Shown here one piece after another: positions 3,494 through 42,774 of a DNA stretch of 64,000 nt (position 1 is the first letter of the stretch; every line of letters begins with the position of its first letter). The notes under the pieces are model-generated. The model saw only the letters and a list, made by a program, of their open reading frames with translations, was not told the DNA's origin and did not search any database. A program made the position numbers and the translations under genes. This DNA comes from Paecilomyces variotii (lineage: Eukaryota): NCBI GenBank assembly GCA_004022145.1, contig RCNU01000016.1; one strand, 5' to 3'.

Positions 3494-6400
3494 AGCTAGA
3501 AAAGAATAATAGATATTAAACTAAGAATAGAAAAGGCCTATAGAAGTTATACTTAGTAAATAATATTAGCTTTAGAGTAAGTAAGGAAATTAAAAATAAA
3601 GGAGTAAGGATATTTAAACCTACTAAATTAAATAAAGGAGTTAGAAAGTTATAGAGATATAAACTGTCTAAAAGATATAACCTTTTTATTATAAAAATAA
3701 AATATTTTATTAATATATAGTATAAGAAGAAATATAAAAAGGTTTATCTAGTAAATATATTAAATAGACCTATAGCGGCTCTAGGGGGGTTATTAGAATA
3801 GAAAAAAATTATTAGGGAGTATTATTACAAAAACTTCTAAAGAAGTATAAAAGAAATATATAGAGAATTTATTAAATATATCTAGCTAAAAATATTAAAT
3901 ATTAAGAAAGGAATAAGATTAATACTAAACTGTCTGAAGAATCTTATTATAGGTAATAATTTATAGCTAAGAGAGAAAGAACTATTAATAGAGGTGTTTT
4001 TTACTTAAAAAGCAGTTTTTGCCTAAATTTTTAAAGAGATTAAATAAATATGCCTAGAAGTTGCACCTCTAATTATTATTTAAACTATAGATTATAAACT
4101 ATAATAAATAAAGAGCTTTTTAATACTAAAGGCATTCTATAGCATAATATAAGAAATAGTAAAAGAGAGAATAAATGCGGGGATTTTTAAATATAGTTAA
4201 GAATCTTATTAAAATCTATAGTTTCTAATAAAAAAGAAAAATAATAAATATTAGCTAATTAATATAGCTATAGAAGTAAATTAAGTAATAATATAAGATA
4301 TTAATCTGCCCCCTTTAGCTAATAAGTTCTTAGAAGAGTTTAGTAGAATGCTAGTATTAATATTTATAGACTTATTCTCTAGATATAATTAGTTAAAGTT
4401 AGCTGAGAAATTGCGGGACTTAATAGCTTTTTATATATTAGAGATTAGTTTAGTTTATTAAGCTAAACTATCTTAAGAATAGATAAATATAGTATAGGAG
4501 TTTATATAAGAAGTTATATAAGTATTAGCAGATAATATTCTTAATATTTATAATATATTTCTAAATAATATATTAATATAAGGACCTAAGACTAATTATA
4601 AGAGAGAAGAGATACTGCTAGGAATTAGAAGGTTTATATTTAAATATATCTAGAATATTAATAAGGTATTATATAGTCTTAAACTTATAGGTTTAATAAT
4701 TATTAGGGAGAAATTATAATTTACAGTATTAGGAATTAAAATAGTAAGCTATATGTATAATATTAAGGGGAGATATTTTAAGTCAGCTAAGGTAATTAAG
4801 ATTTTAAAGTAGCTATTTTATTAAAACTTATAAGAAGCGAGAAAATTTCTAGGGGTTATAGCCTATTACTAAATATAGATTAAAGAATATACTATTAAAG
4901 CCGAGCCGATATACTTAATATTAAGAAAGAGATAAGACTTCCTTTAAGGGCTAAAATAATAAGAAATAATAAATACTTTAAAAGTGGCCCTAATAATAGT
5001 ACTAGTACTTAAGCTAATTAACTATAGAAAGGGAGGCATAATTATTATTAATATTAATGCTAATAGTAGCAGATAAGGGGCTTAACTTACTTAAGAAGAA
5101 AAGGAGTTTAATAAGAAATACCTAGCTAAATATAAAAGTAAAGTATAGATATAGGTAAAGAGATAATATAATAAAGGAAAGCTAAAGTATAAGGCAGTAT
5201 TAAAGGCGCTTTATAAATTCTAAGTATACCTATATAGTATATATTTTTAACTAGAGATAGATATAAAAATTCTAGTAATATAATTAAATAGAATAGTTAT
5301 AGACCTCCTTAGGTTAGTAATTACTTAATAAATTGCTTAAATTCAGTTATTTAATTTTAATATTATCTATATATTAGAAAAAAAGAACTTAGTTATAAAT
5401 AAGTTATCTTAGAAGCTAATAATAGAGTAAGACCTAGAAGAGGTAGAAGATAATAATATAAAGAAATTCTTAGACTTATAGTTTTATATAATCTATTATA
5501 TTAATATATAAGAGGTAGAATTAAACAGTATCCCTTAGTTAATACTTATATTATATTAGTTAGAAAAGTCTTTATTAATTATAGAATAGTTATAAACTAT
5601 AATAAAACTAGATAATATAGATAAAGGATAATATACTAAGTTTAAGAAAGAGGCCCTAAAGTATATAGTCTAAGATAGTATGCTTTTCTAAAGAGTATAA
5701 TAAAATTAGCCTTATTATATAATTGTTAATAATAAGGAGAAGTAAAAGGAAATTCTTATAGCCCTTTATAAAAAGCATAAATATTATAAGTATAAAGCGA
5801 CCTATTAAAAGGTAGCTAATTAATATTAATAAAAAGGCCTATATAAGTATATTATTAAATAGATAAAAATATATAATAAGTATTAAAAAGCAGATAAAGA
5901 ATATATAGAAGAAGCTTTATAGTTAATATTTATTCTACTAGGAAAATTAAAGTTATACTTAGATATTTATAAGATTATACTGCTTAGTAAGAGAAAGACT
6001 TATATTACTATACTTTAAGATAACTTTAGCTAAATTAAATATAAAGCCCTTAGTAGCTTTATTTTAGGAGCTATTACTAAGTTTCTATAAGAAGACTAGA
6101 TTTATTATTAGAGAGTAATAAAGACTTTTATTAATAATAGAGAACCGGAGAATAAAGCTATAATTAATATATTAATATAGAAGTATAAGATTAATTATAT
6201 TAAAGTCTTACTATATAACCTATAAGTAAATAGAGCAGTTAAAGTTATATATAAGTCCTTTATATATAATATCAGAAAATTTATAAAAAGAATAAAGATA
6301 AATTAAATAAACTACTTACCGGCAGTAATCTGGGCGAATAAAAATATAATTAAGACCTTTATAAGCTTAATATTATTTAGAGTAATTATAGGATATAATA

Positions 6401-6948: not shown

Positions 6949-7433
6949 AAATATTAGCTTAAAAGAAGAGAAGTAGAAAGCTAGCAGTAAAATAAGATAA
7001 AGAACTAGTTTAAAAGGAGAAGAAATAAAAAAATAATAGTAAAATAAGTACCAGTACTATAATAAGAAGAAAAGGAAAATAAATTTAAGATAAGGGCGTC
7101 TTTTTTAGGGAAGGGGAAAGATTTAAAAATGCCTAATAATGATTAAGAAAGAAAAAAAAGAGAGATAACTAAAAAATATGTGATATTAGCTTAAATATCT
7201 TAAAAAAGTCTATAAATAAAGCTAAAAATAGAAAATATTAGATAAAGAATATAAGCAATAAATAAAGAATCCTTATCTTATTATAAAAACCTTATTTTTT
7301 ATATTATATAATATTACAGCAGAAGTAACTAGAGACTAAATTAAGCTAAACTTAACCCTATCTTACCTTTTAAGTATATCTTTTTACTTAAAAACTATTT
7401 CGAAGAGTTACTTTATAAAGATATATATTGAAA

Positions 7434-10258
7434 ATAGAAGAAAATATATTAGAAATATAAAATATTATTTATTAGAATAAAGCTCTTTAACTTAGAATAT
7501 ATATATATACTATAATTAGCGAAATTTATAAGCTTATAAAGGAAATAATAAATAAGGCTAATAATAAAGAAGAGAAGGTTTAGTTTATAAGTAATATAGC
7601 AGTAATTATTTTAAATTTTTAAAGTAAATATAATAAAGCAGCTAGTAATTTTTATAATTTCTTAAACTAATAAGAGCTGTTAGAAAAAGTAAGAAAGAAA
7701 AAAATATTAGCTATTAATAAGCTAAAAGAATTAAAAATATAAGTAAAAAAGAACTATAAATATACTAATAAAGGTTATTATAAAGCTATAGAGAAATAAG
7801 GCTAGAAGATTATAGATTAAGTCTTATTAATTATTAGAAAGTTATATTAGACCTTAATAGCTATAGGAGAATTAGCTTTTAATACTAAAGATTAGAGAAT
7901 AGCGGCTATATATTTAGCAAAAGTATAGGTTAATAAACTTTATAATATTAAGAGATAAGGAATACTAACTAAAAAGAGCCTTTAACTAATTAATATTAGA
8001 AAGATAAAAGATATCTTAAGAAAAGCCCTTAGTAGAGAAGGACTAATTTTTTAAAAACTTATTAATAAAGAGCTATAAGAGATTAAAATAAGAGTAAGAA
8101 AAAATAATCTTTTAGAGAAGATTATAAAAGAAGAAGAAGGATATTAGATAAAAGATTTAGATAAAAGCTTATTAGTAGATCTAATATTAGATAAAGGAGA
8201 GGAAAGTATAAAAAAGAAGAAAAAAGAGAAGAAGAGGATTAAAAGTCCTAAAAAGCTAAAAGGGGAAAAAAAGCTTAAGACTTAAGATAAGGGGAAATAG
8301 CTAAAAAAGAATATAAATATAAGGTTAGCATATCTATATTAATAAAAAAGGCTATTACTAATTTAAAAGGCAAAGAAATATTAAAACTTTTAAGAGAAGA
8401 AAGAATTAAACCCGCTATTATATACTAAGTTTATATTAAAAAAATATAAAGTATAATAGGACTAAGGAGTATAAAAAATAATATTCTTAAAAAAAGATTA
8501 AAAATGCTTATAGATAATAATAATAACTTTAAATCTTAGAATATTAATATAGACTACTAGAAATAGTTTTAATAGGAATAGAGACTTAATACTAACCTTA
8601 AGGATTATTACTGCCTAGATAAGGGGGAAACTAAAATATAGTCTTAGCTAAATAGACTAAATATAAGCACTAAAGAGGTTAGAGAAGTCTTATAGTAGGT
8701 TAATTCTAAGAAGATTAACTTAATCTATAAGCCTTATATATAATTATTGGCTAATATAATTAATATAAGGGAGAATATATCTATAAAAGAAGCTAGAAGA
8801 GTATTAAAAGTAGTTAGAAATATAAAGCTAGTAGTAATAAAGCAGTAGAAGAAGGGATTATTTAAAATAATAACCTATTCTTATAAAAGTTTGCTTAAAG
8901 AAACTAAATAGTTTATAAATAAAATCTCTAAAGATAAATAGGCAATAGAATCTCTTAGCAGAGCCTTAAGAATTAATATAAAGACCTCCTTTTTTATAGT
9001 AAACCTAGAAGACCCTTTTATTAAAAAAAAAACTGGGCATTTAAAAGATATATAAAATGCTAGAACTATATAGTTTAAAGATAATATAGAGGCTAAGTAG
9101 ATACTAGATATACCTAATAATAGCTAGGTTAAAGGAAGAATAAAGAGTCTTATTCTAAGAAGTCCTAAAAGTATAAAAGATAAAAATAATATAGAAGTTA
9201 AAAAATTATTATCTAAAGATCTTCTCCCTAAGAAATCTTTAGTATTAGAGATAGTTTAACTGTTTAAAGATCTTAGGTTAATTAATACAGATACTTCTAG
9301 TAATATATCTAGTAGCTTATACTATAAAGCCTAAGATAACCTATATAGAGCTAAAGAGTATCCTAAATCTAAATATAGGGATAAAAAATATTTTAACTTA
9401 AGTAAAGAAGACTTTACCCTAAATAAGATATAAGACTAATATATTTAGTTAAGTATTATAATAAGAAAGGATTTTAACTGTTAAGAAGTAAATAGAGTTT
9501 TCTAGATTATACCCTTTAAAGGGAAATTAGTAAAAAAAATACTATAATATACTATTATAGAAGCAAAAACAGCTCTTTATTATAAAAAGGAGAATAAAGG
9601 ATTAATAGGGCTTAAAAACTTATCTAGAAGTATTCTCTAAAAGGTTATTATATAAGATATCTAGATTTATTTAATCTAGTTAGCGCTATATAGTTATAGT
9701 AAATATAGACTGCAGATCTAATATCTTAGGGGATATAAGCTAAGAGTATTAAATATAGAGACTGCTATTCTTAAGGGAGAAATAGGCTAGAGCTTTATAA
9801 CCCTAAGGACTAGACTAATTACTAAAAATAAGTTTAAGGAAATTATAGGCCTAAGAGATATTATATTTAAGTAGAGAGAAGTAATCTTTATTAGTAATTT
9901 ATATTAGCTAATATTAGAGAATTAGGGAATAGATTTTAATAGTATCTGCTGTTTTAATTATAGGGAGTAAGATAAGATAAGATCTAATTAAGGAGGATTT
10001 AGGCCTTTTAATATCTAGGTAAATAGAGTTATAGTTATAGGCAGAGCGATACTTAGTTAGCTGAACTAGAATTGCTTAGAAGTTAAAACAGAGCTATACT
10101 TTATATTAAAGTAAGATATATTATTAGTTTAAGATTATCTATAGAGGAAAGAAACTTAACTTTATAAGTTAGGGGTTTTAAAATATATATAATATTAAAA
10201 ATTAAAGTATTCTTGCTTTAGGAATAATTTATAGTATTAGAAGGAGGAGATAGTATAG
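7434..10258 (+). pseudogene. Extra ORF3 of A1, about 940 codons, with a C-terminal degenerate dioxygenase-like domain
   Basis: One reading frame in copy 3 (56104-58929, 942 codons); internal stops read as TAA/TAG. Copy 1 has a 1 nt deletion near 8305. Start codon is inferred. Confidence 0.7.
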
Positions 10259-10315
10259 ACTATAATAACTAAAGAAGATAAATAAGGGTATCTACTCTTA
10301 GAGAAAGGGAGGCTA

Positions 10316-10644
10316 TATAATAGAGAGAATTAATATAAAGAATATAATTAGTTAAGAGGTTATATACTTTTATTTAAAGTCTTTAAAAGGTTTATAAATA
10401 AAGCAGGAGAAGAGGGGAAAAATACTCTTTTAATTATTTAGAATAAAATAATTAGCTTTTTTTTTCTATTATTATTCAGTATCAGTTTAGTATTAGATTA
10501 TTATTGGTTTATTATATTAGTTTATAGCTAGAGCTTTTTCTCTAATTCTACTCTAAGCTCTAAAGCTAAATACTCTTCTCTTTTTTCTTAATACCTACTC
10601 GCTTAAAGACTCTATACTAAGTCTTAATATGTCTTCCTATAACA
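10316..10644 (+). repeat. 3' LTR of A1
   Basis: Preceded by polypurine tract AGAGAAAGGGAGGC, ends CCTATAACA, followed by TSD ATAG. Confidence 0.95.
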
Positions 10645-15109: not shown

Positions 15110-18100
15110 CGCTAGGCTAAGACTAATAAGTTTATATATTAATTAACTTAGGGGTAAGCTATATATTTATATTAAAAAGGCTACTTACTAAGAAATAATA
15201 GGTTTATTAAAGAGGGTAAGTAAATTCTCTTAATATTAAGCTACTAAATAGAGAATTAATAACTATAAAGTTAAATACTTAATTACTCTTAAAGATTAAA
15301 AGATAAACTAATTTAATCTACGCCTAGAAGATTAATATATATAATTATAATTTAATCTTAGGGCGAAACTAATTATAAAAAGTTAATCTTAATATTAATT
15401 AAAAAACTTTATAAATATATATCTGCAATAAATAAAGGTATTTTTATATTCTAGATCTTATTAATATAAGATAAACCTTAAAGAAAATACTCTTATTACT
15501 CTTAAATATAATATTAATAGTATAAATATTATAAATATTATAAAAGAAATTAATAGAAATAGTATTATAGCTAATTTAACTAATTAAAATAGGAATAAAC
15601 ATTAAACTTATTAAGATAAGTAATTTAAGACTAAAAGTCTTACTATAATAGTTTTACAAGGTCTTTTAAATAAAACTACTACTAGCTTTATTACTTAATA
15701 AAGAATTTAAGTATAATATTAAGATAGAAGATACTTAACCTATTAATATTAATTCCTATCCTCTATTATATACTTATATAGAGAAATTAAAATAATAAAT
15801 TAAAGAGCTATTAGCTAAGAGGCTAATATAATTCTTAATAAGCCTATAAGGCTTTTTAATACTCTTTATAAAGAAACTTAAAGGAAAATAGTAAATATAT
15901 ATTAATTATTAAGCCTTTAATAAGGTATTAATAAAGAATAAATATTTATTATTAAGAATTTAAGAATTACTAGATATAATTAGCTTAGCTTAGTATTTAT
16001 TTAAGATTAACTTACTATTAAGATATTAGTAAATTTAAATAAAAGTATTATTAATTCTTAAGACTACTTTTAATACTATCTTTAAAAAATTTAAATAGCT
16101 AATAATATTATTTAGACTTATAAATACTCTAGTAACTTTTTAAATAATAATAAATATAGTATTATAGAAGTTTACTAACTAGTTTTATATAGTATATTTA
16201 AATAATATTCTAATCTTCTTATAAATATTAGAGGAGTATTATATATATATTAAGGCTATTTTATAAGTATTAAAGAATAACTAATTATATATAAAGCTTA
16301 GTAAATATATATTTTTAATACTAGAGTTAAAGTTTTATAAATATATTATTAATAATAGCTATATATAACTAATACTTAAGAAGATTAAGGCGATTATAAT
16401 ATAGCCTTAACTTAAAAATATATATAAAATATAATAATTCTTAAGACTAGTAATATATTATTAATAATTTATTAAGGACTTTTTTTAAATAGCTATTTTA
16501 TTATCTAATTTATTAAAGGAAGTAAATAAGATATTATATAAAAAAAAGTTTTATCTTATTATATAAAATATAATATATAAAGCTATTTCTCTTTATATTT
16601 AAACGGCTCTATTATTTAAGCCTATGCTTATATAATTAATTTATAAGAAACTATTTATTATTAAGATAAATGCCTTAGAATAAGCTATTAAAGATATATT
16701 AATATAGAAAAATAAAGGAAATATAATATATTCTATTATATTTAATAGGTAAAAGTTAAATAATATAGAATTTAATTACTCTATATATAAGAAAGAATTA
16801 TTAGTAATTAAGTATATATTTTAGCTTTAAAATTAGTATATTAATAATAATATAATAATAATAATTCTTATAGACTATAAGAGCTTATAATACCTTTAAT
16901 TAATTAGAATATACTTAAAATACTTAGTAAAATAAGTATTAAAGTTTTAAGAATATAATCTAGATATTTAATACTATAGAAGATTTAAGGCTATTATACT
17001 AAATACTATTAGCTACTAGCTTAACTTTATAAAGAATTAGCTAATAAATATTATAGAATTAATAGCTTAATTAGCTATAATATATAGAGTATTTAAGGAT
17101 AAATAAGTTATTACTATAATTAAATTCTATAAGAAAGAAATAGTCTTTAAAAAGAATTAACTTGCAAAATTAATTAAAGAAGAAGCTTTAAGGTTTAAAA
17201 TATTAACTCTAGAGTTAATTTTTAAATAATATCCTTATATAGAGATATAAGAATAAGAAGAAGGCGCCTTACCTAGAACTACTATTTAAACGCGATTTAA
17301 TATACTAAATATATAATAAGTTTAATTACTTAAAATACTTAAGATTAAAAGATATTCTCTATATATAAATATAGTAGCTAAATATATAAAAGGATATATA
17401 AAATTATATAGTAACTTATTTAAACTATTAAGTTACTTAATACCTATAATAGTTACTAGAAAGAGAAAAAGCTTAATATTAAATAAAGATAAGTATCTTA
17501 CTATTTAAGAGATAAGAAATTAACTTAATTAAATAATTACTTATAATACTTAATAGTAATTATTAAATAATTATAGTAATTAATTATACTATAAATTAGC
17601 TAATTATAGTAATTAATTATACTATAAATTAGCTAATTATAAAGACTTTATTAAATATAATAAAAAAAGTAATTATATAATTTCTTTATAATAAAATCTA
17701 TATTAATTATAATACTTTATATAAAATTCTTATTAATAATAATTATAATCTGCTTATAAGAGTAATATAATACTATCTTAAGCTATTAAAGACTAGATAT
17801 AAGATAATAATATTATAATATCTATATATAAATAATAAGGTAAAAAACTTAAATAGTATATTAAGATAAATATTAATAAAATATCTCTTAGAGAAATTAA
17901 CCTGCCTATAAGATAAGTATTTCCTATAAATAATCTTTGCAATAAAAATTAAAAAACATATAATATCTAATATTAGCTTATTTTACTTAATATATAAGAT
18001 ATACTTATAAATTCTAAGTAATAAGATTAATATATTAAATAAAGAGTAATTAATTAAGAATAGTAATAAGCGCCTATAGAGAGTAAACTATATATAATTA

Positions 18101-18690: not shown

Positions 18691-18928
18691 TTAAGAGTTT
18701 ATTATCTCTTTAAAGATATTATTATAATTAGAAATAAATAAAGAAATAATAAATATATTAAAAGAGAAAGTTATAGCTAAATAAAATATTAAAAAGCTAG
18801 TAGAAATTATTTGTTTTAATTAATTATTTATAATAACTATTAATAACTTTAAGCAGTAAGATAAAGTATTATTAATATAAGGAAATATATAATAAGAAGA
18901 AAGTATATCTATAAGAAAAAATATCTAT

Positions 18929-19186
18929 TAATATAGAAAAGGTATTAATAAGAAGAATAGTATAAGAAGCTATATAAGAACTTAAGCTATAAGGTATAAC
19001 TAGGCATAGAGAATAAAAGTATTATAGAATAACCTAGTACTATATAAATAAGACTATAATATATATAATGCTAAGAAATAAAGAGGTATTAATCTAAATA
19101 TATAATATATAGTTAAGGGAATAAGCTAACTATAGCTCTAACTATATAATATTATTATATAATATAGTTATAGATTCTCTATAATA
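18929..19186 (-). repeat. 3' LTR of C1
   Basis: 258 bp, aligns with 47427-47682. Confidence 0.9.
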
Positions 19187-19324
19187 TATAACTAAAGCTT
19201 AGTATTAGTATCTCCTGCTAATATTAGAAAGAAAGAAAAAAATATAATAAATATTATAAACTAGTACTAGTAATAAGAGAAAAAAGATAAAGAAGAGATA
19301 ATTAAAAAAGCATATATAAATCCT

Positions 19325-22300
19325 CTAATAATAATTATTCCTTAAGCTTAAACTTATAAAGATTATATTATTAATTAAGTATATAGAAATAAGAGCAGGT
19401 ATTAAGATAATAATATTAATACTATACTCTTAATAGTAGAAGTATAAATTCTTCTTAAAGATATATTTCTTAACTTTTTATATAAGCTTTATAGCCTTAA
19501 AAGCCTTAATAAAAGCGCGCTATCTCTAATTATAGATATATCTCCTACCTTTTTTATAGCTCTTAGTTATAATAAAGAGCTCTGCTTAAATTATAAGATT
19601 AATCTATTAAACTCTCTTTATAAATATATTAGAGATATTTTTTAAGCCTATAATTAGAATAGCTACTAGAAATATATATAAAATAGTAATATATTAATTT
19701 ATAAGCCTAGATAGAGAAGTAATCTTAGAAATAAGGTCTTAATATATTATAAATAGCTATTTCTATATCTTAGCCTTTATAATATTAAGAGTTTAATAAT
19801 TCTTTTAAATCTTAATATACTATAAGAGAAGAGTATACTTAATATATATAGCGGGTCTTATTAATCTATATAATAATATAAAATATATAATATAAGTATT
19901 AAATATATAATATATCTTATTAATTTAATTTATACTAAAGTCTTAAGTATTTTAATATATAAATATCTAGTTATTTATATAATAAATAAAGCTAGCTAAT
20001 ACTAGTCTATACTTCTAGATATAAGGCTATTATTCTTTAAATTTCTAATATATACCTAGGAGTATCTATATATAGTTTCTCGTATTCTTATAATTAAGAG
20101 ATATATTACTTTAAATTATTATAGAACTATAGTTATATTAAATTAAGTCTAGAATATTTATATTAATATACTAAAAGAAGATAAAATCTCTAAGCCTTAT
20201 ATATTTTATATAGTAAGAATAAGCAATTAAATACTAGTTCTTATCTAGCTAATATATAATATACTATAGATAATAAGCAGGGTCTTAATATATAATTTAC
20301 TATATAATAGAGTAATATATAGCTTATAGTTATTTTAAGTTATTTTAATTACTTATCTTATGCTAGTAGTATATATATATATTAAACTCTTTATAAGCAA
20401 TTAAAGAGATAAATAGCTAGTTAATATATATAGAGCTTATTAAGATTTTCTTTTATTAAAATATTAATCTTAAGATAATAAGTAAATTAAAAACTACTTA
20501 TTTTTACTTTATAAAACTAGCTTTTAGCTCTCTTTATTATAAATATAGTAAAATACTAATTATATTTATTAAGAACTCTTAATCTAGATCTTAATATTTT
20601 TAAATAATTAATATTACTATTTATACTAAAATATATTAATAAATACTTAAAGTATCTTTAAATTAAATAAAATAGAAGTCTTAATAAAACTAATAATAGT
20701 AAGAAATATAAAAATCTCTCTAAGTTAGTAATAGTAATTATAGAGACCTTTAATATATATATAAATAAGCTAGTTATAATCTAGACTATAGGTCTATATT
20801 TTAGCTTTTAAAGCTAAGAGCTTTATATATATAAAATAGATATACTTATTTAATATAGTAAGGGCAGCCTTTATTTATTCTATAAGTTTTATAAGCTTAA
20901 TATCTAAGATCTTAACCCTCTTACTAATCCTCTAGTAAATACTCTTAAATAAACCTTAATACCTATATCTTATTCTAGATATTTAAGATATTTTTAAAAA
21001 GGTCTTATTTATATTATTAAGATTACTAAGAATATCTATAGACTTAATAATAAATTACTTTATTATAATAGCAGCAGCGGCAGTATTTTAATACTTATAT
21101 AATATTAGAGAAGGAGAGCTTAGTTTTAATTAGCCGGGGGATTTTATAGATAGTAACTTATAAAATCCTAGTAAATTAAGAGTCTTACTAATTCTAGATA
21201 GAATAAATAAGATTAATAGTATTCTCTAAGGTATAATAATATCGCGAGGTATAATTATACCTGTATAAGGTAATAAGAAGCTATTACTACTTCTAACTTA
21301 AGGCTTATATACTAAAGATATTAATAACTATAATAAATATATTAGAGATAAAATTATTATAGATAATCTTAGAGATAAGGAGATTTTTTATAGTAGAGAT
21401 TATAGTTTAACAAGGATAGATAGGCTAAAAGGATTATACTCTATTTATAAGCTTTAAAGCTCTATCTATAGGATTAGATAAAGATCTTAAAAGGAAAGAA
21501 GGTTATTAATATTAGCTAGCTATAGGGTTTTTTTAGAACTTTTCCCTTTATTAAAATATAAGAGCCTATTAATTATAACCCTATTTAATATATAGATAGT
21601 ATCTTTAAAAGAATTAGTATTCTTTATAAAAATAACTATATATTTAGCTATTTATTTAGAGTTAATATAATATTATATAAGCTCTATATTCTTAGAGCCC
21701 TACTTATTTATAATATTTCTCTTTATATTCTTAATTTATCTCTTTCTATTACTAACTTTCTTATAGATAGCCTTAATATTTTTAAAGTTATTCTAAAATT
21801 ACTTAGCACTAATAGTATATAATTAAATTTAAGAGGATTTAATATACTCTTATAGTTATATAAAGAGATTATCTATAGCTTTATAATTCTAGTATAATAT
21901 AATAGCTAGCTGAAGCTAACAGCTATATTAAAGGGTTATTAATTACTAGTTAATAAAGCTAATAGCTTCTTATAGAAAAGAGAACTAGATATTATTAATT
22001 ATTAAAGTATTATCTTAGCTAGTTAGTATAAGCGCAGGCGCAGTAAGGTAAGGAGCAATTTAATAGTATAATATAGTTATAAAGAAGTAAAGTAAGAGAA
22101 GCAGAATAATAAAAGAAATTATTTAATAAGAGAAAAAAGAGAATATACTTACTAATAAAATAGTAAGATTCTAACCTCTTTCTACTATCTCTAACTAGAG
22201 CTAGAATTAATTATAGTCTTCTTAAAATAGTAGAGAATAAAAGATAAATCTAATAGGTATTTTATTAAGTAATAGGCAGGTAAATAATAATTCTCTAAAA
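19325..22300 (-). pseudogene. Extra ORF3 of family C with a C-terminal PhyH-like 2OG-Fe(II) dioxygenase domain (19439-20392)
   Basis: One frame over 20392-19439 reads after de-RIP EFDMY..LGWLRAMYHS..QQIVRQDPAYY..RPD..YPYY..PGD.TFFRHID.N..IQG.VSLD.E..NCT.ILPGMH..EWW..LPHGSTGPA..RT.LPW..ISDALVGR..FGKNSYF. Outer ends approximate; possible intron (GTAAGT) near 22150. Confidence 0.75.
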
Positions 22301-22489
22301 TAGTAGTAATAGTAAGCGTAATAAAATAATTAGCTTAAGGGTTTAAAAAGAGTAAAAAAGAAAAAAAAAATAAGAACTTAAGATATAGTAAGATATTAAA
22401 TTTACTATATATAAATTTACCGCTTAGAATAAATTCCTAAATAAGAATAACTATTATTATATAGATTTAGCTAATTAAATAGCTTTATT

Positions 22490-24099
22490 AATTAGAATAA
22501 GTTAGATTAATAATTATAGCTATATTTTATTTAAATAGAATCTAGTCCTCTGCCGCAGCTTTAGCGTCTATATTGCTTAATCTAGCCCTATTATCTTTTT
22601 ACTTATCTTTAAATATATAGTTTATCTTAATAATACTGCTTATTTTAAAGGTATTATCCCCCTTATTTAAAAAGCTAATAGCCTTATTAGACTTAGAGAT
22701 AAAGCCCTTTAATTAATTCTTACTAATAATTCTATTTAATAGTATACTATTTAGCTCTTTAAGATAGTAAAATCCTAAATTCTGCAGAACCTTATATATA
22801 TAATATAGGCTAAGCTAATAAAAGGCTAGTTTATTTAAATAAGATATATTATTCTCCCTTTATATATTATAAAGCAATACTAGAGACTTATTCTTAAGCT
22901 CTTTAATATAGATATTATAATAGTTATTAAAATATTCCTTATTTTACTTATATATATACTCTAGATATATAGCTACTTCTTTAAGGTCTTAATTATATTA
23001 TTTTATCTAATAAGCTCTTATAGTAAATAAGTTAGCAGTAGTTTAAATAGTCTTCTATAGAAATATAGACTATATAGAGATTTCTAGGTTAATAAGTAAA
23101 ATTGCTTCTTAACCTATAAATAGGTAATATAAAGTTATACTAGTACTTATATAAATAATATAATAGTCTATAAGTAGTATTACAGGTAGGTATTAGAGCT
23201 ATCTTTTACTAGTTCTATTTATTATTTTAAATAATATATCTTTAATAAGATAATATCTTAATTCTATAATACTATTTAATTATAGGTAATATAATAAGAT
23301 AGAGATCTTCTTAATACTATACTTAATAATAAGAGCTTTTATTAAGGCTTAATTTTCCGGCTCTTTATTTTAATTCTTTAATAATTTTAAGAGGTAGATT
23401 AAAATAGTAAAAGATATCTTTCTATAAAAACTTTATAATTATATTTAAAATAGCTATAGTAAAAGTATAAGTTTTTACCTATTTAAATAGGCTATTCCTA
23501 AGGATAATAAGAAAGTTCTTATTATAATCTAGGGGTATATAGACTATATTAATATAAACCTTAGCCTATAGTATTAATAGCTATATTAAGTATAATACCT
23601 TTTCTTACCTATCTAATTCTTGCAGTTAATATAGGAGATAAGTCTTAATATAATATTTTATATTAAGGTATAGGCCTAGCTATTAATAGCGAGCTATAAT
23701 TTAATAATTTATATCTTCTTTTCCTCTATAATTATATTCTTTATATATTATATATAAGATTCTCTCTCTATTTTTTTTATTATTAATAACCCTATATAAA
23801 GATATATTCTTACTTATATAGTAGAATAGATACTAATCTTTAACTAAAAGTTTTAAGGCTTTCTTTTAGAACTATTAGAATTCTCTTATTAATATACTCT
23901 AAGACTTTTCTAAAATTATTAAGTACTTAGTAATATACTCAGATTCTTTAGAATAGGAAAAATTAAGAATATAAACTTTTTCTTTAGCTTAAGATATAAT
24001 TATATATATAAGTATAATATATATAAGAAAGTAACTTAGCTAATCTTAGATAAAGTTATTTATATCTTTTTTAGTATTTACTATTAGCCCTATTAAGAA
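22490..24099 (-). pseudogene. pol: C1 pol 3' part (RNase H end, integrase)
   Basis: Integrase-like reading ending EDWIP...IAVII, similar to the family A tail; cut at 24100 by A2. Confidence 0.75.
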
Positions 24100-30100: not shown

Positions 30101-33100
30101 ATACTACTAATTAAACTAGAAGTACTTATTTAAAAGACTTTAATATAGGATAAGGTTAAGACTATAGAAGATCTTCTATTTTTTTATATATAATAAATAG
30201 AGCTCTAAGATTAGGATATAGAAGAGGCCTAACTTTATATTTAATATATAAGAGAAGCTAGTAAAAAAGTCTTTAATAATAAGAAATAGCTCTATAAAGA
30301 ATAACTAATAAAAGGATAGCTTATTCTGCTTTATAATATAAAGCTTAAGATATCTTACTCTGTAAAACTAGCATACTACTAGCTTAAACTATATAGAATT
30401 AAAGAAATCCTTAGGAAAGAATCCTATAAGCTTAAGAAGTTAGATAGTATATTTTTTAGAGACCTAATTTATAGAAATTGCTTAAAAGGCTATTATCTGT
30501 AAGAGGATTAAAATAAAATATTAATTATAAGTAATAATATAGCACTTAAATAAGAAAATCAGTAACTAAGTAACAATAATAATAATATAGACTAGATATT
30601 ATTTAGATTAAAATATATAGTTATAGTTCTAGCACTCTTCTTCTAAAAATATTAGCTTAAAAGAAGAGAAGTAGAAAGCTAGTAGTAAAGTAAGATAAAG
30701 AGCTAATTTAAAAGGAGAAAAAATAGAAGAATAATAATAAAATAAGTATTAATACTATAATAAGAAGAAAAGGAAAATAAATTTAAGATAAGAGCATCTT
30801 TTTTAAGGAAGGGGAAGGATTTAAAGATACCTAATAATAATTAAGAAAGAAGAAAAAAAGAGATAACTAAAAAATATATAATATTAGCTTAAATACCTTA
30901 AAAAAGTCTATAAATAAAGCTAAAAATAGAAAATATTAGATAAAGAATATAAGTAATAAATAAAGAATTCTTACCTTATTATAAAAACCTTACTTTTTAT
31001 ATTATATAATATTATAGCAGAAGTAACTAGAGACTAAATTAAGCTAAACTTAACCCTATCTTACCTTTTAAGTATATCTTTTTATTTAAAAACTATTTTA
31101 AAGAGTTACTCTGCAAAGATATATATTAAAAATAGAAGAAAATATACTAGAAATATAAAATATTATCTATTAGGATAAAGCTCTTTAACTTAGAATATAT
31201 ATATATACTACAGTTAGTGAAATTTGTAAGCTTATAAAAGAGATAATAAGTAAGGCTAATAATAAAGAAGAAAAGGTTTAGTTTATAAGTAATATAGCAG
31301 TAATTATTTTAAATTTTTAAAGTAGATATAATGAAGCAATTAATAATTTTTATAATTTCTTAAACTAATAGGAGCTATTAGAAGAAGTAAAAAAGAAAGA
31401 AATATTAGCTGTTAATAAGCTAAAAGAATTAAAAATATAAGCAAAAAAGAACTATAAATATGCTAATAAAGATTATTATAAAGCTATAAAAAAATAAAGC
31501 TAGGAGACTATAGACTAAGTCTTGTTAATTATTAAAAAATTATACTAGACCTTAATAGCTGTAGGAGAATTAGCTTCTAATACTAGAGATTAGAGAATAA
31601 TAGCTATATATCTAGTAAGAATATAAATTAACAGACTTTATAATATTAGGAAATAAGGAATACTAATTAAAAAAAGCCTTTAACTAATTAATATTAGAAA
31701 GATAAGAGATATCTTAAGAAAAGCCCTTAGCAGAGAAGGACTAATTTTTTAAAAGCCTATTAATAAAGAGCTGCGAGAGGTTAAAATAAGAATAGGGAAA
31801 AATAATCTTTTAGAGGAGATTATAGGAGAAGAGAAAGAATATTAAATAGAAGATTTAAGTAAGAGCTTATTAATAAATCTAATATTAAATAAAGGAGAGG
31901 TAGAGTGGTTATATAGGCGGTTCGGTTCGGTTCAGGGGGGGAGTTAAACCGCCCGTAGCGGTTTTCGGTTTAGGGCAGATAAACCGTACCTAAACCGAAC
32001 CGTATACTAGTAGTTCGGTTTAAAACTAAAAAAACCGGATCGGCATAATTAGTTACTAACCTAAGTTAGATCCGGTTATATAACTATGCTCTAGCTATAT
32101 TAGGATAAATAAGCGAAAATTACAATACCGTAATTTACCGGTTTCTAATATATTTTTATTATATATACTAAATACTATAGTAATTTTATACCTCCGATAT
32201 AAGTATCGATAAATTACATAGTGTAATTTAAATACGAGGTTAAAATTACGGTTTAAATGGTTTAAACTAAAAACCACCGGTTCGGTTCGGTTCTGGTAGA
32301 CTCGCACCGCGGTTTACTAGGAAGCGAACCAAACCGAACCATAGGCGGTTCGGTTCGGTTCGGTTCGGTTTTTTCGGTTTACTGTAACCACTCTAAGGAG
32401 AGGAAAGTATAGAGGAGAAGGAAAAAAGGAAGAAGAGAACTAAGAGTCTTAAGAAGCTAAAAGGGGAAAAAAAGCTTAAGACTTAAAATAAGGGGAAATA
32501 GCTAGAAAAAGGATATAAATATAAGGTCGGCATATCTATATTAATAGAAAAGGCTATTATTAATCTAGAAGGCGAAAAAGTATTAAAATTTTTAAGAGAA
32601 GAAAGAATTAAACCTGCCGCTATATATTAAGTTTATATTAAAAAAATATAAAGCGCAATAGGACTAAGGAGTATAGAAGATAATATTCTTAAAAAAAGGT
32701 TAAAAATACTTATAGATAGTAATAATAACCTTAAATCTTAAAATATTAATGCAGACTATTAGAAATAGTTTTAATAAAAATAAAGATTTAATACTAACCT
32801 TAAGGATTATTACTGCCTGAATAAGGGGGAAACTAAAATATAGTCCTAGCTAAGTAGACTAAATATAAGCGCTAAGAAGGTTAGAGAAGTCTTATAGTAG
32901 GTTAATTCTAAGAAGATTAATTTAATCTATAAGCCTTATATATAATTATTAGCTAATATAATTAATATAAGGGAGAATATATTTATAAAAGAAGCTAGAG
33001 GAGTATTAAAAATAGTTAGAAATATAAAGCTAGTAATAATAAAGTAGTAGAAGAAGGAATTATTTAAAGCAATAACCTATTCTTATAAAAGTTTATTTAA

Positions 33101-34845
33101 AGAAATTAAACAATTTATAAATAAAACTTTTTAAAGTAAATAGGTAATAGAATCTTCTAGTAGAGCCTTAGGAACTAGTATAAAGACCTCCTTTTCTGTA
33201 GTAAACCTAGAAGACCCCTTTATTAAGAAAGAAACCAAATACCTGAAAGATATATAAAATATTAGAACTATATAGTTTAAAGATAATATAGAGGCTAAGT
33301 AGATACTAGATATATCTAGTAACAGCTAGGTTAAAGGAAGAATAAAGAGTTTTATTTTAAGAAGTCCTGAAAGCATAGAAGATAGAGATAATATAGAAGT
33401 TAAAGAATCCTTATTTAAAGACTTTCTTCCCGAGAAATCTCTAATATTAAGGATAGTTTAACTGTTTAGAGATCTTAAGTTAATTAATACAGATATTTCT
33501 AGTAATATACCTAACAGCTTATACTATAAAGCCTAAGATAACCTATATAGGGCTAAAGAGTATCTTAAATCTAAATATAGGAATAGAAAATATTTTAACT
33601 TAAGTAAAGAAGATTTTACCCTAAATAAGATATAGAACCGATATATTTAGTTAGGTATTATAATAAGAGAGAACTTTAACTATTAAGAAATAAATAGGGT
33701 TTTCCAGATTATACCCTTTAAAGAGAAACTAGCTAAAGGAATATTATAATATGCTATTATAAAAGCGAAAGCAGCCCTTTATTATAAGAAGGAGGGTAAA
33801 GGATTAGTAGGGCTTAAGAACTTATCTAAGAGTATTTTCTAGAAGGTTATTGCGCAAGATATCTAGATCTATTTAATCTAGTTAGCACTATATAGTTACA
33901 GTAAATATAAGCTGCAGGTCTAATATCTTAGGAGATATAAGCTAAGAGTATTAAATATAGAGACTGCTATCCCCAAGGGAGGAATAGGCTAAAGCTTTAT
34001 AACCCTAGGGACTAGACTAATTATTAGAGATAAGTCTGAGGAAATTATAGGCCCGAGAGATATTATACTTAAGCAGGGAAAAGTAACCTTTATTAGCAAT
34101 TTATATTAGCTAATACTAGAGAATTAGGGAATAAATCTTAATAGTATTTACTGTTTTAATTATAGGGAGTAAGATAAGATAAAATCCGACTAAGGAGGAT
34201 CTGGGCCTTTTAATATCTAGATAAATAGAGTTATAGCTATAGGTAGAGCAATACTTAGTCAGCTAAACTAAGATTGTTTAGAAGTTAAAGCAGAGCTATA
34301 CTTTATACTAAAATAAGATATATTATCAGTTTAAGATTATCTGCAGAGAAAAGGAACTTAGCTTTATAAGTTAGGGGTTTTAAAATATATATAATACTAG
34401 AAATTAGAGCATTCTTGCTTTAGGAATAATTTATAGTATTAGAAGGAGAAGATAGGGTAGACTATAATAACTAAAGAAGGTAAACAGAGGCGTTTATTCT
34501 TAGAGGAGGGGAGGCTATATAGTAGGGAAAATCGGTATAAAGAATATAATTAGTTAAGAGATTATATGCTTTTATTTAAAGTCTTTAAAAGGTCTATAAA
34601 TAAAGCAGGAGAAGAGGGAGATAATATCTTTTAGTTATTTAAAATAAAATAATTAGCTTTTCCTTTCTATTATTGTTTAGTATCAGTTTAGCATTAGATT
34701 ATTATTAGTTTACTATATTAGTCTATAGCTAGAGCTTCTCTTCTAGCTCTACTCTAAGCTCTAAAGCTAAATCCCCTTCTTTTCCTTCTTAATACCTACT
34801 CGCTTAAAGACTCTATGCTAAGTCTTAATATATCTTCCTACAACA
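24104..34845 (+). mobile_element. Family A copy 2 (inserted in C1 pol, carries a MITE)
   Basis: 328 bp LTRs 24104-24431 and 34518-34845, TSD ATAG at 24100-24103 and 34846-34849, colinear with A1 at offset about 23700. Confidence 0.95.
31901..32395. mobile_element. hAT-type MITE, 495 bp
   Basis: 13 bp TIR TAGAGTGGTTA(T/C)A, 8 bp TSD AGGAGAGG (31893-31900 and 32396-32403), dense subterminal CGGTT/AACCG repeats. Absent at the matching site in A1 and A3. Confidence 0.92.
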
Positions 34846-34849
34846 ATAG

Positions 34850-37325
34850 TATTTAAGATAAACTATTTACTATTATATACTTCTATTTAAGAATATGCTT
34901 AATAGTAAAATTAAATAAATAAATCTATATAAGCTAACTAGTAATTAAAGTATTAGGGAGATTTATAGCTAATTTATTTAGTTATACTACTAGAGTTTAA
35001 GTATTAACCTTAAGCTTAAAATAAATTCTATACAGCTAATAATAAAACTTCTTAAATATCTTTAGAACTATTTTATATTCTCTCTTTCTTATATTATACT
35101 TCTTCTCTATATTATTTTATATACTAGACTTATATTTAATAGAATAATACTTATTTTACTATTTTTATATAATAATAGCTTTAAAGCCTTTCTTATTTAT
35201 ATCTATAGCAATAATAATATTAAGTAAGTCCTAGATATAGTTAATAGAGATAATTACCTAGTCGCTTATAAAAAGCTACTTAATCTCCTTAAAGGCCGCT
35301 TACTGCTTTTTACCCTAGATTTATTCTACTCTTATTTAAAATAAATAATAAAAAGGCGCTATAATAATTCTATACTATAATATAAGAGCTTTAAAGTAAA
35401 AAGCTAATCTAAGAAATAAGTAAATTTAGTTTATACTAATACGCATAGGCTATTCTATAACCTTTTAAACTTTCTCTTTATCTATATAGTAGCTAGAATA
35501 GTTATATAATTATTCTACTATCTTTAAACCGGCTATAGTAAATTAGGACTTTTTAATAGATATAATTGCTTCAGCGAGCTTAAGAAGGTAAAGAATATAG
35601 TTAAGATTCTGAAGATATTCTAATATATATAGGCATATACTAAGAAATACTTCTTTATTATTATATTTTAAATAAGAACCTTTAATATTTATATTATCTA
35701 AGAAGATTTTAATAATCTTAAGTAAAGCTTCTAGTAGAATAAATATTATAATATACTTAATCTGCCTAATAGAGTTTATAGTACTCTAAAGAATTATTAC
35801 TTAATATAAAAGCTTAAGTAGAGTTTAAATAACTATTATATCTTTATCTTCTAGGGTAAGAGTAATTTAATTATATCCTAAAAGTAAATTAATAAGCAAG
35901 CTTAAAGATAGGCTATTAAAATCCTTAGCAAATTTATCGATATTTAGAGATATATTTATATTATAGACTATTACTTTATTAATCTATATAGCAGCGTTAA
36001 TAAGCCTATACTTACTATTCTTCTTCTTAATTAGAAACTATAGGTTCTAGTATAAACTATAATACTATTTAAGAATCCTATTTTAAAGTCTTTTATATAA
36101 TATTTAAGCTATAATTTCCTTAAGCGCTTAAAGCGGCTAAAATCTAGGGATTTACTATATTTTATATAAAATAGTCCTAATGTATTATAATAAAGCAATC
36201 TTAGGATAAATTCTCTTAATATCTTCTATAGACTATTTTAAAACTCCTTTTCTCTTATAAAGTAATTCTAATAATATAGCTCTTTTATTCTCTAAAAGTT
36301 CTATACCTATAATTAATTATTCTGCTTATTTAAGAATTAAATAAAACTCTTATATAATTATTATAATTCGCAGCTGTAAATATTTATTATATAGTATTTC
36401 TATATCTAGTATTAAGTTCTTATAATAGTATTCTAAGTACAGCTTCTGCTATCTTAAATCTCCTCTAAGTATTTCCCCGCTATTTAATCCCCCTAGGTTA
36501 ATAGGGTTTACCTTATTAGCCTTTTACTTCCTTAGTATATTAACTGCTATATAAATATAGTTATAATAGCTTATCTATAGCTTAAGGTCTAATTACTTTA
36601 ATATTCTATACTTAATACTTAAGTCTATAAGATTTAAGCGGTAAAGGAATTTTACTAGACTATTCTTAACCTCTAATTAATTAACTAATTTTACAGGTTA
36701 TAACCTATAAAATCTTAATAAATTAGAAGTCCGCATTTTTATAGTTATATATTTTACTCTAATTGCTTTAACCTAGATATATAAGCTTATTAATATTTTT
36801 ATTACTGCTTCTCTTTATCTTTTAGCAGATACTATATTAGTAAAATAATATTTACTTAAGCTTTTAAAGACTTTAGCTAAATATTCTTTATTATCTTAAT
36901 ATTTTAATTAGTTAGTCTATACTTAATAAACTTAAAGCAGTTATTTTAAATCTCTCTATAGATATAATAGAGAATAGTTCTATTATTAAGAGTTTCTATT
37001 ATAAGCTTTAACTTTACTTACTAGAGATATCTAAGAATATAATCTATATTACTTATAGATATAATAAGAATAAGAGATTATATAATAATATAACTAATAG
37101 TAATAGGTATATTCTTATAATACTCTATACAGTTTATAATAGTCTGTATTTAGACTATTATTAAGCAGTTTAAACCTAGAATTATAGGTAGGCTAAGATA
37201 TTAAATAAGCCCTAAGCTTATTATATTAATTTTAGAACTTATATTAAAAATAATATATACTCTTTTCTTATTAATTATTACTATAGTCTTTAATATCTTA
37301 ATTATATATATAGTTTCCTTATTAT
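34850..37325 (-). pseudogene. pol: C1 gag end, protease, RT and RNase H start
   Basis: De-RIP RT motifs on the minus strand, IFLDD at 35707-35693. Confidence 0.8.
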
Positions 37326-37330
37326 ATATT

Positions 37331-37485
37331 TGTCATAGAGACAAACCCCTAGACCTCGGGTCACGTGACTTGCCAGTCACGTAATACATCATGTGACTTC
37401 CTGTACTTAGACCTACTAGATCTTAGGATCTCTTCTAATTCTCTAATGAGAATAACTTTAGCATTAATCCCTTTACCCTACATTA
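37331..37485 (+). repeat. 5' LTR of D
   Basis: Matches 44991-45145 apart from C>T/G>A changes. Confidence 0.96.
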
Positions 37486-37487
37486 TT

Positions 37488-37498
37488 TTATTCTCATT
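37488..37498 (+). promoter_or_regulatory. Self-priming PBS (Tf1/sushi type)
   Basis: TTATTCTCATT is the exact reverse complement of AATGAGAATAA at 37445-37455 in the LTR; no TGG tRNA PBS. Confidence 0.75.
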
Positions 37499-37789
37499 TG
37501 TTTATTTTTTTTTATTAACTGTGACGTACTTATTAGAGAAACCTTAAGACTTAGCTTAAAAACTACGGACGATTATATCCAGCTACCGGAGACCTTGTAG
37601 TATAATAAAGGACTACGGCCGACTATAAAGCAATACTTACGGTAATTAACTATAACTTTTTATAGTGAATTATAGGAGTTAATAGTTAACTATAGACTCG
37701 CTATTAATAAACAGCAGTAAAACTAGGCTATAAATAATAAGACTCTGTCAGGACAATTCTATAATTACAATAAGATTAGGCAAAATAGC

Positions 37790-39035
37790 TATATAAAACC
37801 CAGGGCAGATCTAGATCTTAGAGAATACTGCAGGATAAGGACTATCTTAATAACAATAAGCAATACTAGGCAATAATAATACAGACAATAATAATAACAC
37901 TAATATTAGGCAATAAGGAATATCTTCTTTAGCAGGAATACAGGACTAGGGTTCTTTAACTAATAATATTATTATAAGAGCTACTGAGTTAGTAAGGCAG
38001 CTACAGGAGGGCGAGGCCGCAGCCGGATAAACTATAACAAACTAATAGACCCAACTACAGCAAAGTAACGCAATTTAAGAACTGCAATGGCAGTTAGATA
38101 TAATCATACAAAATTAACAGGCGCAGTTATTGAGTAATTAAAAATTATCGAATTAATCTGAACATACCAGCAGTTATAGATCTGGGACGACCTCATCCTT
38201 AGCATTATTAAGGAAACCTAAACTACAGCGCCCTAAGCTATTTGACGGCTTATCGGAGGAACTACATTACTAGATAGTAGAATTTGAGGAGTAGTTAGAT
38301 AATAAAGGACTTCACAATACTAAAGAATATGCCTCCTATTTATACTCTTATATAAAGGGTTAGATTAAATAACGGCTGACAATACTGAAAATTAATAACC
38401 TTAAGAATTTAATCTTTATAAACTACGCACTACTCTAGAAATAGTTGCTCGACTACTATAGGCCGGCAAATACCGACATTACAGCGGTATAGAAGATGTT
38501 TAAACTTCAACAATACTATAACTAGCCGCTACAAGATTTTATTAACAATTTTGAAATAATTATGGCGGACCTGGATTAGAATAATACTACCCTGAGTAAT
38601 GCGTTTAGTCGCAAGCTAATACCATAGATCGCTTAAGAGATTTATTAAGGCTACTTCGCCTATTCACTAGCCTTATATGCCAAATAGAAGCGCGCAGCAC
38701 AATAAGCAGAGTTATATATCTAGGAGGATTGGAGGCGCACAGAGTCTTCTCTATATAGATAAAGAGGGCGCGGCTGGATAGGGAGATAATATAATACTAG
38801 GAGTTAATTACTATAACAGGAGCTATAAGAGTTATTATAGCGGGGCCGCAGACAGAATTAATATTACCTATTTTAACCATCCAGGAGCAATAAGAAGTAT
38901 ATATTACTTAATAAGGAGTAGAAGAGACAACAAAATAAGGGCCTATATCTATATTATAGCGAGAAAGGCTATTGGGAAAAGTAATGCCTTAAGGCTTTCT
39001 AGCTGTTAGAGGCCTCCTCTACCCTAAAAAACTAA
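37790..39035 (+). pseudogene. gag: gag of D
   Basis: De-RIP RPKLFDG, CCHC knuckle CLYCSEKGHWEKQC at about 38945-38987, followed by slippery AAAAAAC at about 39026-39032. Start approximate. Confidence 0.75.
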
Positions 39036-42760: not shown

Positions 42761-42774
42761 ATTTGCGTCAAATA

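Follow-up and report, generated by a model that had tools for sequence, protein, structure and literature searches.

A probable PhyH-like dioxygenase gene as third open reading frame of a Gypsy retrotransposon lineage, recognized from a mutated copy in Paecilomyces variotii

Does a Ty3/Gypsy retrotransposon of filamentous fungi carry an oxygenase gene of its own? The question is raised by a stretch of 64,000 nucleotides from Paecilomyces variotii (contig RCNU01000016.1 of assembly GCA_004022145.1), hereafter the window, whose positions serve as coordinates throughout. An initial annotation of this DNA had singled out positions 19439-20392 on the minus strand, between the integrase and the 3' long terminal repeat (LTR) of a Gypsy element here called element C, as the relic of a PhyH-like Fe(II)/2-oxoglutarate dioxygenase gene that becomes legible when repeat-induced point mutation (RIP) is undone on paper. 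Our analysis confirms that the observation is real and supports the identification. The stretch is very probably a copy, killed by RIP, of ORF3, a PhyH-like Fe(II)/2-oxoglutarate dioxygenase gene that is the third open reading frame (ORF) of a Gypsy lineage.

G+C content is 15-24% across most of the window, and the repeats within it differ from each other nearly only by transitions. Indeed, the three 10.3-kb copies of one family, family A, are 99.86-99.97% identical after collapsing of G-to-A and C-to-T changes, compared with 88-89% uncollapsed; this transition-only divergence is the signature of RIP. Window DNA was compared with intact genes by means of a RIP-aware alignment score, built to tolerate C-to-T and G-to-A changes, which recovered reverse transcriptase (RT), RNase H and integrase in the window as a positive control. 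The region is present in 20 public sequencing runs, comprising 4 isolate assemblies (33-71 million letters) and others that are mostly food-fermentation or grain metagenomes.

Intact relatives of the element, in place of a de-RIP consensus, provided the reference, and with them every test named in the initial annotation as decisive turned out in its favour. A search with the RT-RNase H part of family A against 1.8 billion proteins returned intact pol relatives, which held the usual pol domains only. An alignment of eight of them led to 80 metagenome contigs with such pols (33-55% identity), and the 51 with a near-complete pol match were examined (36-59% G+C). LTR pairs were found in 16 of the 51, with a space between pol and 3' LTR of 1.6-6.1 kb in 15 of these 16 and of 0.6 kb in locus L178. 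The space is occupied by a large sense ORF, ORF3, which encodes 986 amino acids in L185 and 988 in L187; others lie in L192, L202 and L203, and decayed ones in L186, L198 and L206. L187 is a complete element of 10,622 bp, with LTRs of 278 bp each and 100% identity, TG..CA ends, a 5-bp target duplication (CTACT) and a polypurine tract. Its ORF1 encodes gag-protease and its ORF2 RT, RNase H and integrase-SH3, and ORF3 follows at 7462-10422, starting 357 bases past the pol stop. In the spacer between pol and ORF3 of this element, at 7151-7168, we also noted a purine tract, GAAGCGGGGGAGGGGACG, similar to the polypurine tract before the 3' LTR; it may be a second, internal plus-strand primer site.

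When the intact ORF3s were aligned with the region behind pol of element C, L185 ORF3 gave a RIP-aware score of 473, the null maximum being 47, and the other four scored 458 (L187), 369 (L192), 293 (L202) and 270 (L203), with nulls of 38-53 overall. An ORF3 family profile scored 733 on the remnant, compared with a window median of 33. The parts of ORF3 that were located in this way are the following:

19373-20464, minus strand: dioxygenase domain and C-terminal part of ORF3, inactivated by RIP, equivalent to residues 538-905 of L185 ORF3; it contains 19439-20392 in the same frame
20162-20170, minus strand: former His-x-Asp iron ligands, now TAT ATT AAT, aligned to H638-I639-D640 of L185 ORF3
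19868-19870, minus strand: former distal His iron ligand, now TAT, aligned to H739 of L185 ORF3
19838-19840, minus strand: former 2-oxoglutarate-binding Arg, ten residues past the distal His, now AAG, aligned to R749 of L185
20638-22023, minus strand: what remains of ORF3's poorly conserved N-terminal half, read in another frame

From 20464 down to 19373, 364 codons align to L185 in a single frame with small gaps only, 66 being identical as read and 210 RIP-compatible. The frame is the one annotated at first, as position 20464 lies 72 bases above 20392. These 364 codons include 39 stops, 26 of which fall on Gln, Arg or Trp of L185, residues that together make up 55 of the 364; the window has stops at 9 of the 14 Trp and 8 of the 11 Gln of the aligned protein. 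Codons for Gln, Arg and Trp are those that RIP converts to stops. The motifs that had been reconstructed from the degraded letters (TFFR-H-I-D, IQG.VSLD..NCT.ILPGMH, LP-H-GSTGPA and RT.LPW) have their counterparts in L185 ORF3 at exactly the same places, namely STAFRHID, MIQGSVSLDDETEDNCTIILPGMH, LPHGAKGPS and RRTMLPW; in L185 letters, the counterpart of the second motif reads IQGSVSLDDETEDNCTIILPGMH. TAT, AAT and TAT are the RIP products of CAT, GAT and CAT, so that the ligands are lost in this copy. Among the 40 of 864 variants listed, five lie within 19439-20392 at positions where other genomic copies keep G or C, and the restored codon gives the L185 residue at three of the five; none of the 40 falls in the three key codons.

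The N-terminal half is recognizable as well. Family profile positions 16-191 match 22023 to 21502 (score 150), residues 107-206 of L185 match 21816 to 21511 (65 vs 33) and residues 411-512 match 20928 to 20638 (45 vs 32). Since this remnant runs in another frame, at least one frameshift must lie between about 20638 and 20464. The ORF3 copy of the window is thus dead, with 39 nonsense codons in 364, its iron ligands changed to Tyr, Asn and Tyr, and a frameshift upstream.

What kind of protein the intact gene encodes was addressed with a model of residues 530-910 of L185 ORF3, made with AF2 and 62 relatives. It is a double-stranded beta-helix of high model confidence (pLDDT 92.9, pTM 0.91). Foldseek against the Protein Data Bank (PDB) gave 254 matches at E<=1e-3, with probability 1.00 to 2-oxoglutarate hydroxylases, led by proline hydroxylase, GriE, EvdO1, SnoN, EctD and YbiU (E 2e-8 to 3e-6). 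VIA-align placed DUF1479/YbiU structures first (Z 19-21: 7twe_A 20.9, with a root-mean-square deviation of 2.9 over 271 residues, 4rgk 20.8 and 6akz 20.2), followed at Z 14.5-16.4 by GriE, EvdO1, proline hydroxylase, EctD, SnoN, KanJ and FtmOx1. In hhalign the PhyH profile reached a probability of 93% (E 3.3e-7), compared with 0.2% for AlkB. Moreover, a PhyH profile built from 41 bacterial genes matched the ORF3s of L185 and L187 (E 1.8e-5 and 3.5e-5) among 4510 ORFs of the related loci, of which none matched an AlkB profile; on the window, the RIP-aware AlkB profile stayed within its null distribution. L202 ORF3 scores 25.1 bits with Pfam PhyH (PF05721), above the cut-off of 22, and PhyH was the only Pfam family matched by more than one of 50 members scanned, one other family matching a single member. 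A DUF1479 sequence model gave no match among ten ORFs (E<=0.1) or the 50 members (E<=0.01). No TET/JBP structure stood among the listed Foldseek and VIA-align matches; no TET/JBP profile was compared. Fold and profile matches together support the proposal of a PhyH-like dioxygenase with a double-stranded beta-helix.

The catalytic residues, which in the window could only be reconstructed, are present as real His and Asp in the intact homologues. Of the 189 family proteins in which these places are covered, 179 retain H, D, H and R together; the Arg is retained in 203 of the 210 that cover its place and is invariant in alignment A2. All 10 exceptions (P0192, P0271, P0280, P0294, P0296, P0297, P0310, P0341, P0359 and P0371) are H-to-Y, D-to-N or R-to-Q/W/H changes, reachable by C-to-T or G-to-A transitions. 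It is therefore probable that public fungal genomes include annotated "genes" that are lightly RIPped copies of the element. In the N-terminal half (alignment A3, 50 sequences), C361, C363, C407 and H410 of L185 ORF3, counted from the first Met, are invariant, and this C-x-C...C-x2-H arrangement within an otherwise poorly conserved half looks like a metal-binding motif.

ORF3 could belong to the element and its beta-helix domain could nevertheless be a binding or scaffold module instead of an enzyme. PhyH-like folds without known catalysis do exist in RNA-protein complexes, a trypanosome RESC subunit having matched our model at Z 15.4, and the catalysis of ORF3 is a prediction. Retention of the triad and the Arg in nearly all family proteins, with exceptions of RIP type only, is however unexpected of a scaffold, and we consider this alternative improbable.

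A second alternative accepts the ORF as real and takes it for a host gene captured once, an accidental neighbour or a nested foreign insertion. LTR elements are known to capture genes, other relatives have different cargo in the same slot (an Ulp1 domain in L209, DUF3716 in L201), and some related elements are without the dioxygenase core. An ORF3-family match lies behind pol on the same strand in 13 of the 36 relatives with at least 2 kb behind pol; the core itself was found in 7 of 37 loci, the others having the N-terminal part only or other cargo. Against a one-time capture stands the occurrence of the ORF3 dioxygenase behind pols that are far apart: the ORF3s of L185/L187, L202/L203 and L192 are only 33% identical and yet retain the motifs. 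In a pol tree the dioxygenase-bearing elements did not form one tight cluster, which is all that this tree shows, as it is a quick tree of 17 of the 37 loci, the other 20 having been dropped since their pol did not stay in one frame for at least 700 amino acids. Between L185 and L187, dN/dS is 0.083 for ORF3, 0.031 for its dioxygenase domain and 0.086 for pol. ORF3 is thus under purifying selection as strong as that on pol, which also speaks against a chance passenger, as do the intact ORF3 in L187, a complete recent insertion, the absence of stand-alone cellular relatives among the shorter proteins, where all matches were fragments of the ORF3 family, and the even depth over 19188-21700, expected of a single repeat unit. 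We regard a one-time capture as highly improbable.

ORF3 therefore behaves as an accessory ORF, lying inside the LTRs of a complete element, recurring in diverged copies and evolving under purifying selection. The initial annotation had asked whether intact homologues lie 3' of a Gypsy pol and inside LTRs; they occur there, on the same strand, in many diverged elements, and the recurrence is not what a single captured host gene would give. Two protein searches with ORF3 returned 144 and 134 relatives, mostly called "hypothetical protein" or unnamed. The named sources include Venustampulla, Sclerotinia, Rhinocladiella, Coccidioides, Penicillium, Plenodomus, Xylona and several lichen fungi, and the classes checked are Leotiomycetes, Eurotiomycetes, Dothideomycetes and Xylonomycetes. 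A search for longer, fused forms of ORF3 found none, which is weak evidence.

The element around the remnant was delimited as follows:

18929-47682, minus strand: element C, Ty3/Gypsy, carrying two nested insertions
18929-19186, minus strand: 3' LTR of element C, 99.2% identical to 47426-47683 with transitions ignored
47427-47682, minus strand: 5' LTR of element C, from the LTR pairing; gag adjoins on its inner side
46207-47112, minus strand: gag of element C, RIP-aware codon alignment to the gag of family A scoring 157 (null maximum 68)
34832-36544, minus strand: protease/RT part of element C, a transition-collapsed match of 74% to family A 3709-5433 over 1730 nt, between the nested insertions
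22482-23772, minus strand: integrase and C-terminal tail of pol of element C, from RIP-aware alignment to the intact pol proteins P0001-P0012
24100-34850, plus strand: copy 2 of family A, nested within element C
37331-45145, plus strand: element B, a chromodomain Gypsy element with an LTR pair and Pfam matches to RVT_1, RNase H, integrase, SH3 and Chromo, nested within element C

A CTAT(T) repeat stands at both flanks of the LTR pair (18925-18929 and 47683-47687), and with this target duplication and with gag followed by RT, RNase H and integrase on one strand, element C has the organization of Ty3/Gypsy. The edges of its 3' LTR were also seen in 4 sequencing runs, as loose ends at 18926/18928 and 19186 and as a raised (doubled) depth. 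Its integrase gave RIP-aware scores of 131-272, with nulls of at most 50, and a transition-collapsed match of 74% to the pol of family A. Pol terminates near 22400, 3.2 kb short of the 3' LTR, and 19439-20392 occupies the last third of the space between them. The segment 19188-21700 is wholly covered by other genomic copies, some of which bridge the LTR edge. The position first proposed for the oxygenase relic, between integrase (23772 to 22482) and 3' LTR (18929-19186), is thus borne out.

The window alone gave a less favourable picture. In its 318 codons the annotated frame has 35 stops (18 TAA, 17 TAG and no TGA; density 0.11), and the two other minus frames have 30 and 37, so that all three are rich in stops. 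Restriction of the stops to TAA and TAG is uninformative because RIP can make every stop codon from a sense codon, and neither stop density nor its sliding version singled the frame out. Thus, of the earlier claim of a minus-strand frame of about 318 codons with TAA/TAG stops, the frame holds, by virtue of its homology to intact ORF3, and the stop pattern offered in its support does not, other frames being alike. Similarly, RIP-compatible HxD sites number 2.1 per 318 codons over the six frames of the whole window, and in 90% of cases a compatible His and Arg come after the site; the HxD...H pattern by itself carries no weight as evidence. A pol-like period-3 purine signal extends over the whole region behind pol (median 6.5, compared with 2.1 elsewhere) and names no frame. 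RIP-aware codon-to-codon comparison of the regions behind pol of C, A and B gave nothing above the reversed-order null, and neither did comparison of that of C with other parts of the window.

Several results weigh against the identification or against the role that could be attached to it. Pfam searches of raw translations, with stops as X, gave no match in the six frames of the region and, in family A, only a weak RNase H; at a G+C content of 15-24% such searches are too insensitive. In RIP-aware scans with the bacterial PhyH profile, the annotated frame ranked between 33 and 297 of 1260 segment-frames, and plus-strand frames of the same stretch outscored it. It reached 31.7 in local mode at p=0.7 (166 segment-frames higher) and 32.4 in glocal mode (137 higher), and at p=0.5, 0.85 and 0.95 there were 296, 38 and 32 segment-frames above it. 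A purine/pyrimidine codon score trained on pol, which is not transferable to ORF3, came to -11.8 bits for the annotated frame. Membership in PhyH is itself marginal, L185 and L187 staying below the Pfam cut-off with 17.0 and 16.2 bits (PhyH being the only family matched), L203 and L192 giving no PhyH match, and only 8 of the 50 members scanned matching at E<=0.01, the best at 1e-8. A PDB sequence search found nothing with the single domain and, with the family profile, five chance-level rows (E 0.6-3.9). Target duplication and LTR termini were read in L187 only; the relatives are metagenome contigs, and several of the "LTR pairs" are located at the ends of contigs, where assembly wrap-around may have produced them. 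Within the window, the closest relative is family A, whose profile matches are moderate for the N-terminal part and tail of ORF3 and absent for the dioxygenase core. Finally, amino acids and small molecules are the substrates of the nearest folds, a poor fit to a role related to silencing.

The negative tests made on the window alone are read as low power, because intact ORF3 itself scores 16-25 bits with Pfam PhyH. In a power test with simulated RIP, only PhyH genes above about 60-70 bits when intact stood out, and for genuine PhyH genes that had been held out the median score after the same treatment was 116 and the lowest 41.8; the bacterial scan could therefore exclude a typical PhyH gene only. 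The frame is held to be real because of its homology to intact ORF3. That the stretch is non-coding, RIP-degraded filler between pol and LTR whose motifs come from free reversal of RIP would suit the ordinary stop density, the ubiquity of HxD...H...R-compatible patterns, the null-level PhyH score and the want of a Pfam match, but its probability is negligible and it was rejected in view of the RIP-aware alignments (five intact ORF3s at 270-473 against nulls of 38-53, in exactly the annotated frame), the family profile score of 733, the coincidence of window stops with Q, R and W and the presence of the reconstructed motifs in L185. There is a methodological point here: at 18% GC, ordinary profile searches and simple coding statistics are blind, and RIP-tolerant alignment against intact relatives gave a clean recovery of a dead gene.

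How such a gene might work in a living element can be outlined from the relatives. The lineage is one of Ty3/Gypsy elements of about 10-11 kb in filamentous ascomycetes. Their third ORF, of about 850-990 amino acids, comes after gag-protease and RT-RNase H-integrase, in the same orientation and immediately before the 3' LTR. In its C-terminal half the protein has the PhyH/DUF1479-like domain with the HxD...H triad and the 2-oxoglutarate-binding Arg. Live elements might translate ORF3 from its own message or by re-initiation, and the product might be an active oxygenase that aids replication of the element or its escape from host control.

As for the target, we tentatively favour, at a little under even chances, a protein or nucleic acid belonging to the retrotransposon particle or to host chromatin, the reason being the long extension at the N terminus, which bears a Cys/His motif. 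A small molecule, the kind of target that the nearest fold relatives have, is rather unlikely, and some other target slightly less likely again, and a non-catalytic role of ORF3 appears distinctly unlikely. The initial annotation had raised the possibility that the enzyme modifies or demethylates RNA, cDNA or chromatin to counter silencing. The more specific idea that ORF3 is a counter-defence enzyme, which would oxidise a mark on the RNA, cDNA or chromatin of the element (methylated bases or methylated histone tails, for instance) under guidance of the N-terminal Cys/His region, is unlikely. If it were true, methylation-, RIP- or heterochromatin-based silencing of repeats would be blunted, and ORF3 would be without precedent as such an enzyme, both in the PhyH/DUF1479 branch and among fungal retrotransposons.

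Further sequences behind pol were noted as well. Behind the pol of L209, an ORF at 15526-17211 has an Ulp1-type cysteine protease domain (Peptidase_C48, E 3.9e-8), and behind that of L201 an antisense ORF at 8413-9744, on the minus strand, has DUF3716 (E 1.2e-7). This Gypsy lineage seems to use the slot behind pol to try out genes. In element B (38% G+C), about 2.3 kb separate chromodomain and 3' LTR (42700-44991, plus strand) and contain a long, nearly open frame, that of base 37332, with a purine/pyrimidine coding score of +23. It matched no Pfam family and did not resemble the ORF3 of element C, and may be another, unrelated third ORF. The three copies of family A match the ORF3 family profile on the plus strand at 7563-8587 and 10004-10285, at 31261-32789 and 34206-34478, and at 56233-57393 and 58675-58920, with RIP-aware scores of 59-127 compared with a 95th percentile of 52.5, over the N-terminal part and the C-terminal tail only; single ORF3 proteins stayed at null level on the region behind pol of this family. 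Family A may carry an ORF3 whose enzyme domain has been lost or replaced.

A second, partial copy of the region behind pol of element C lies at 63373-64000, where it matches 20975-21602 and runs off the end of the window. It is interrupted at 63373 by sequence related, in reverse, to a 496-bp insert of family A copy 2 (31900-32395), which is perhaps the solo LTR of a further family. Directly left of the 3' LTR of element C, at 15895-18019 on the plus strand, lies element D, a B-like Gypsy remnant with the following parts, into which element C was probably inserted:

15895-16350, plus strand: RT of element D
16648-16938, plus strand: RNase H of element D
17294-18019, plus strand: integrase of element D

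Mobile elements with a 2-oxoglutarate dioxygenase of their own are rare and informative. AlkB domains occur in plant viruses, and additional ORFs of LTR retrotransposons are known in the form of plant aORFs and env-like ORF3s; ORF3s have reportedly been seen in retrotransposons of bdelloid rotifers too. These resemble our ORF3 in being third ORFs between pol and 3' LTR, and none of those compared is a PhyH-like oxygenase. We found no description of ORF3 in the literature, within a search that left Repbase and most subscription journals outside, where an earlier one may exist. A term search of the text of a survey of fungal LTR elements met no mention of oxygenases (PMC3248453), and a search on DUF1479/GIG2 brought up only unrelated papers on fish Gig2. 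In public genomes the ORF3 proteins are mostly called "hypothetical protein" and are likely counted as host genes.

Among cellular proteins, PhyH (PF05721) and DUF1479 members (YbiU 4rgk, YPO2976 7twe, Candida GIG2 6akz) share with ORF3 the double-stranded beta-helix, the HxD...H triad, an Arg about ten residues past the distal His and the motif ..vsl.lDd....G....PGsH. The known members are stand-alone cellular enzymes of about 250-420 amino acids, whereas ORF3 has about 850-990, with an N-terminal extension of ~530 amino acids, resides inside a retrotransposon and shows marginal similarity only (16-25 bits with Pfam PhyH).

The nearest precedent for ORF3 is the AlkB-type Gypsy lineage of orchids. 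Ty3/Gypsy elements of Phalaenopsis carry an ORF for an AlkB-type 2-oxoglutarate-dependent dioxygenase, according to Alvarado-Marchena et al. (2022, PMC9289625). They are alike in being Gypsy LTR retrotransposons with a separate extra ORF and a C-terminal 2-oxoglutarate/Fe(II) dioxygenase domain (PMC9289625). The orchid domain, however, is AlkB-like and was shown to demethylate m6A in RNA (PMC9289625), whereas ORF3 is PhyH/DUF1479-like (AlkB 0.2% in hhalign) and is known from sequence and model. The orchid elements are members of the Tat/Ogre lineage, 25.5 kb long, that occur in a single genus of orchids and are described as recently gained (PMC9289625); those with ORF3, in contrast, measure ~10-11 kb and are spread over several classes of Pezizomycotina, with ORF3s down to 33% identity.

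The TET/JBP genes of fungal transposons offer the other comparison. They too are 2-oxoglutarate dioxygenases carried by fungal transposons, which they are believed to help withstand silencing, and a 2025 survey states that no retrotransposon encodes one (PMC12730594). They differ in sitting in DNA transposons and Helitrons and in belonging to the TET/JBP clade (PMC12730594). The AlkB domains of plant viruses and of a single orchid Gypsy lineage, together with the TET/JBP enzymes of fungal DNA transposons, all indicate a contest over marks on nucleic acids, and ORF3 raises a testable question of its own, namely why a retrotransposon needs an oxygenase. What ORF3 adds to these systems is a different branch of the superfamily, present as a conserved third gene of a Gypsy lineage in several classes of filamentous ascomycetes and constrained like pol.

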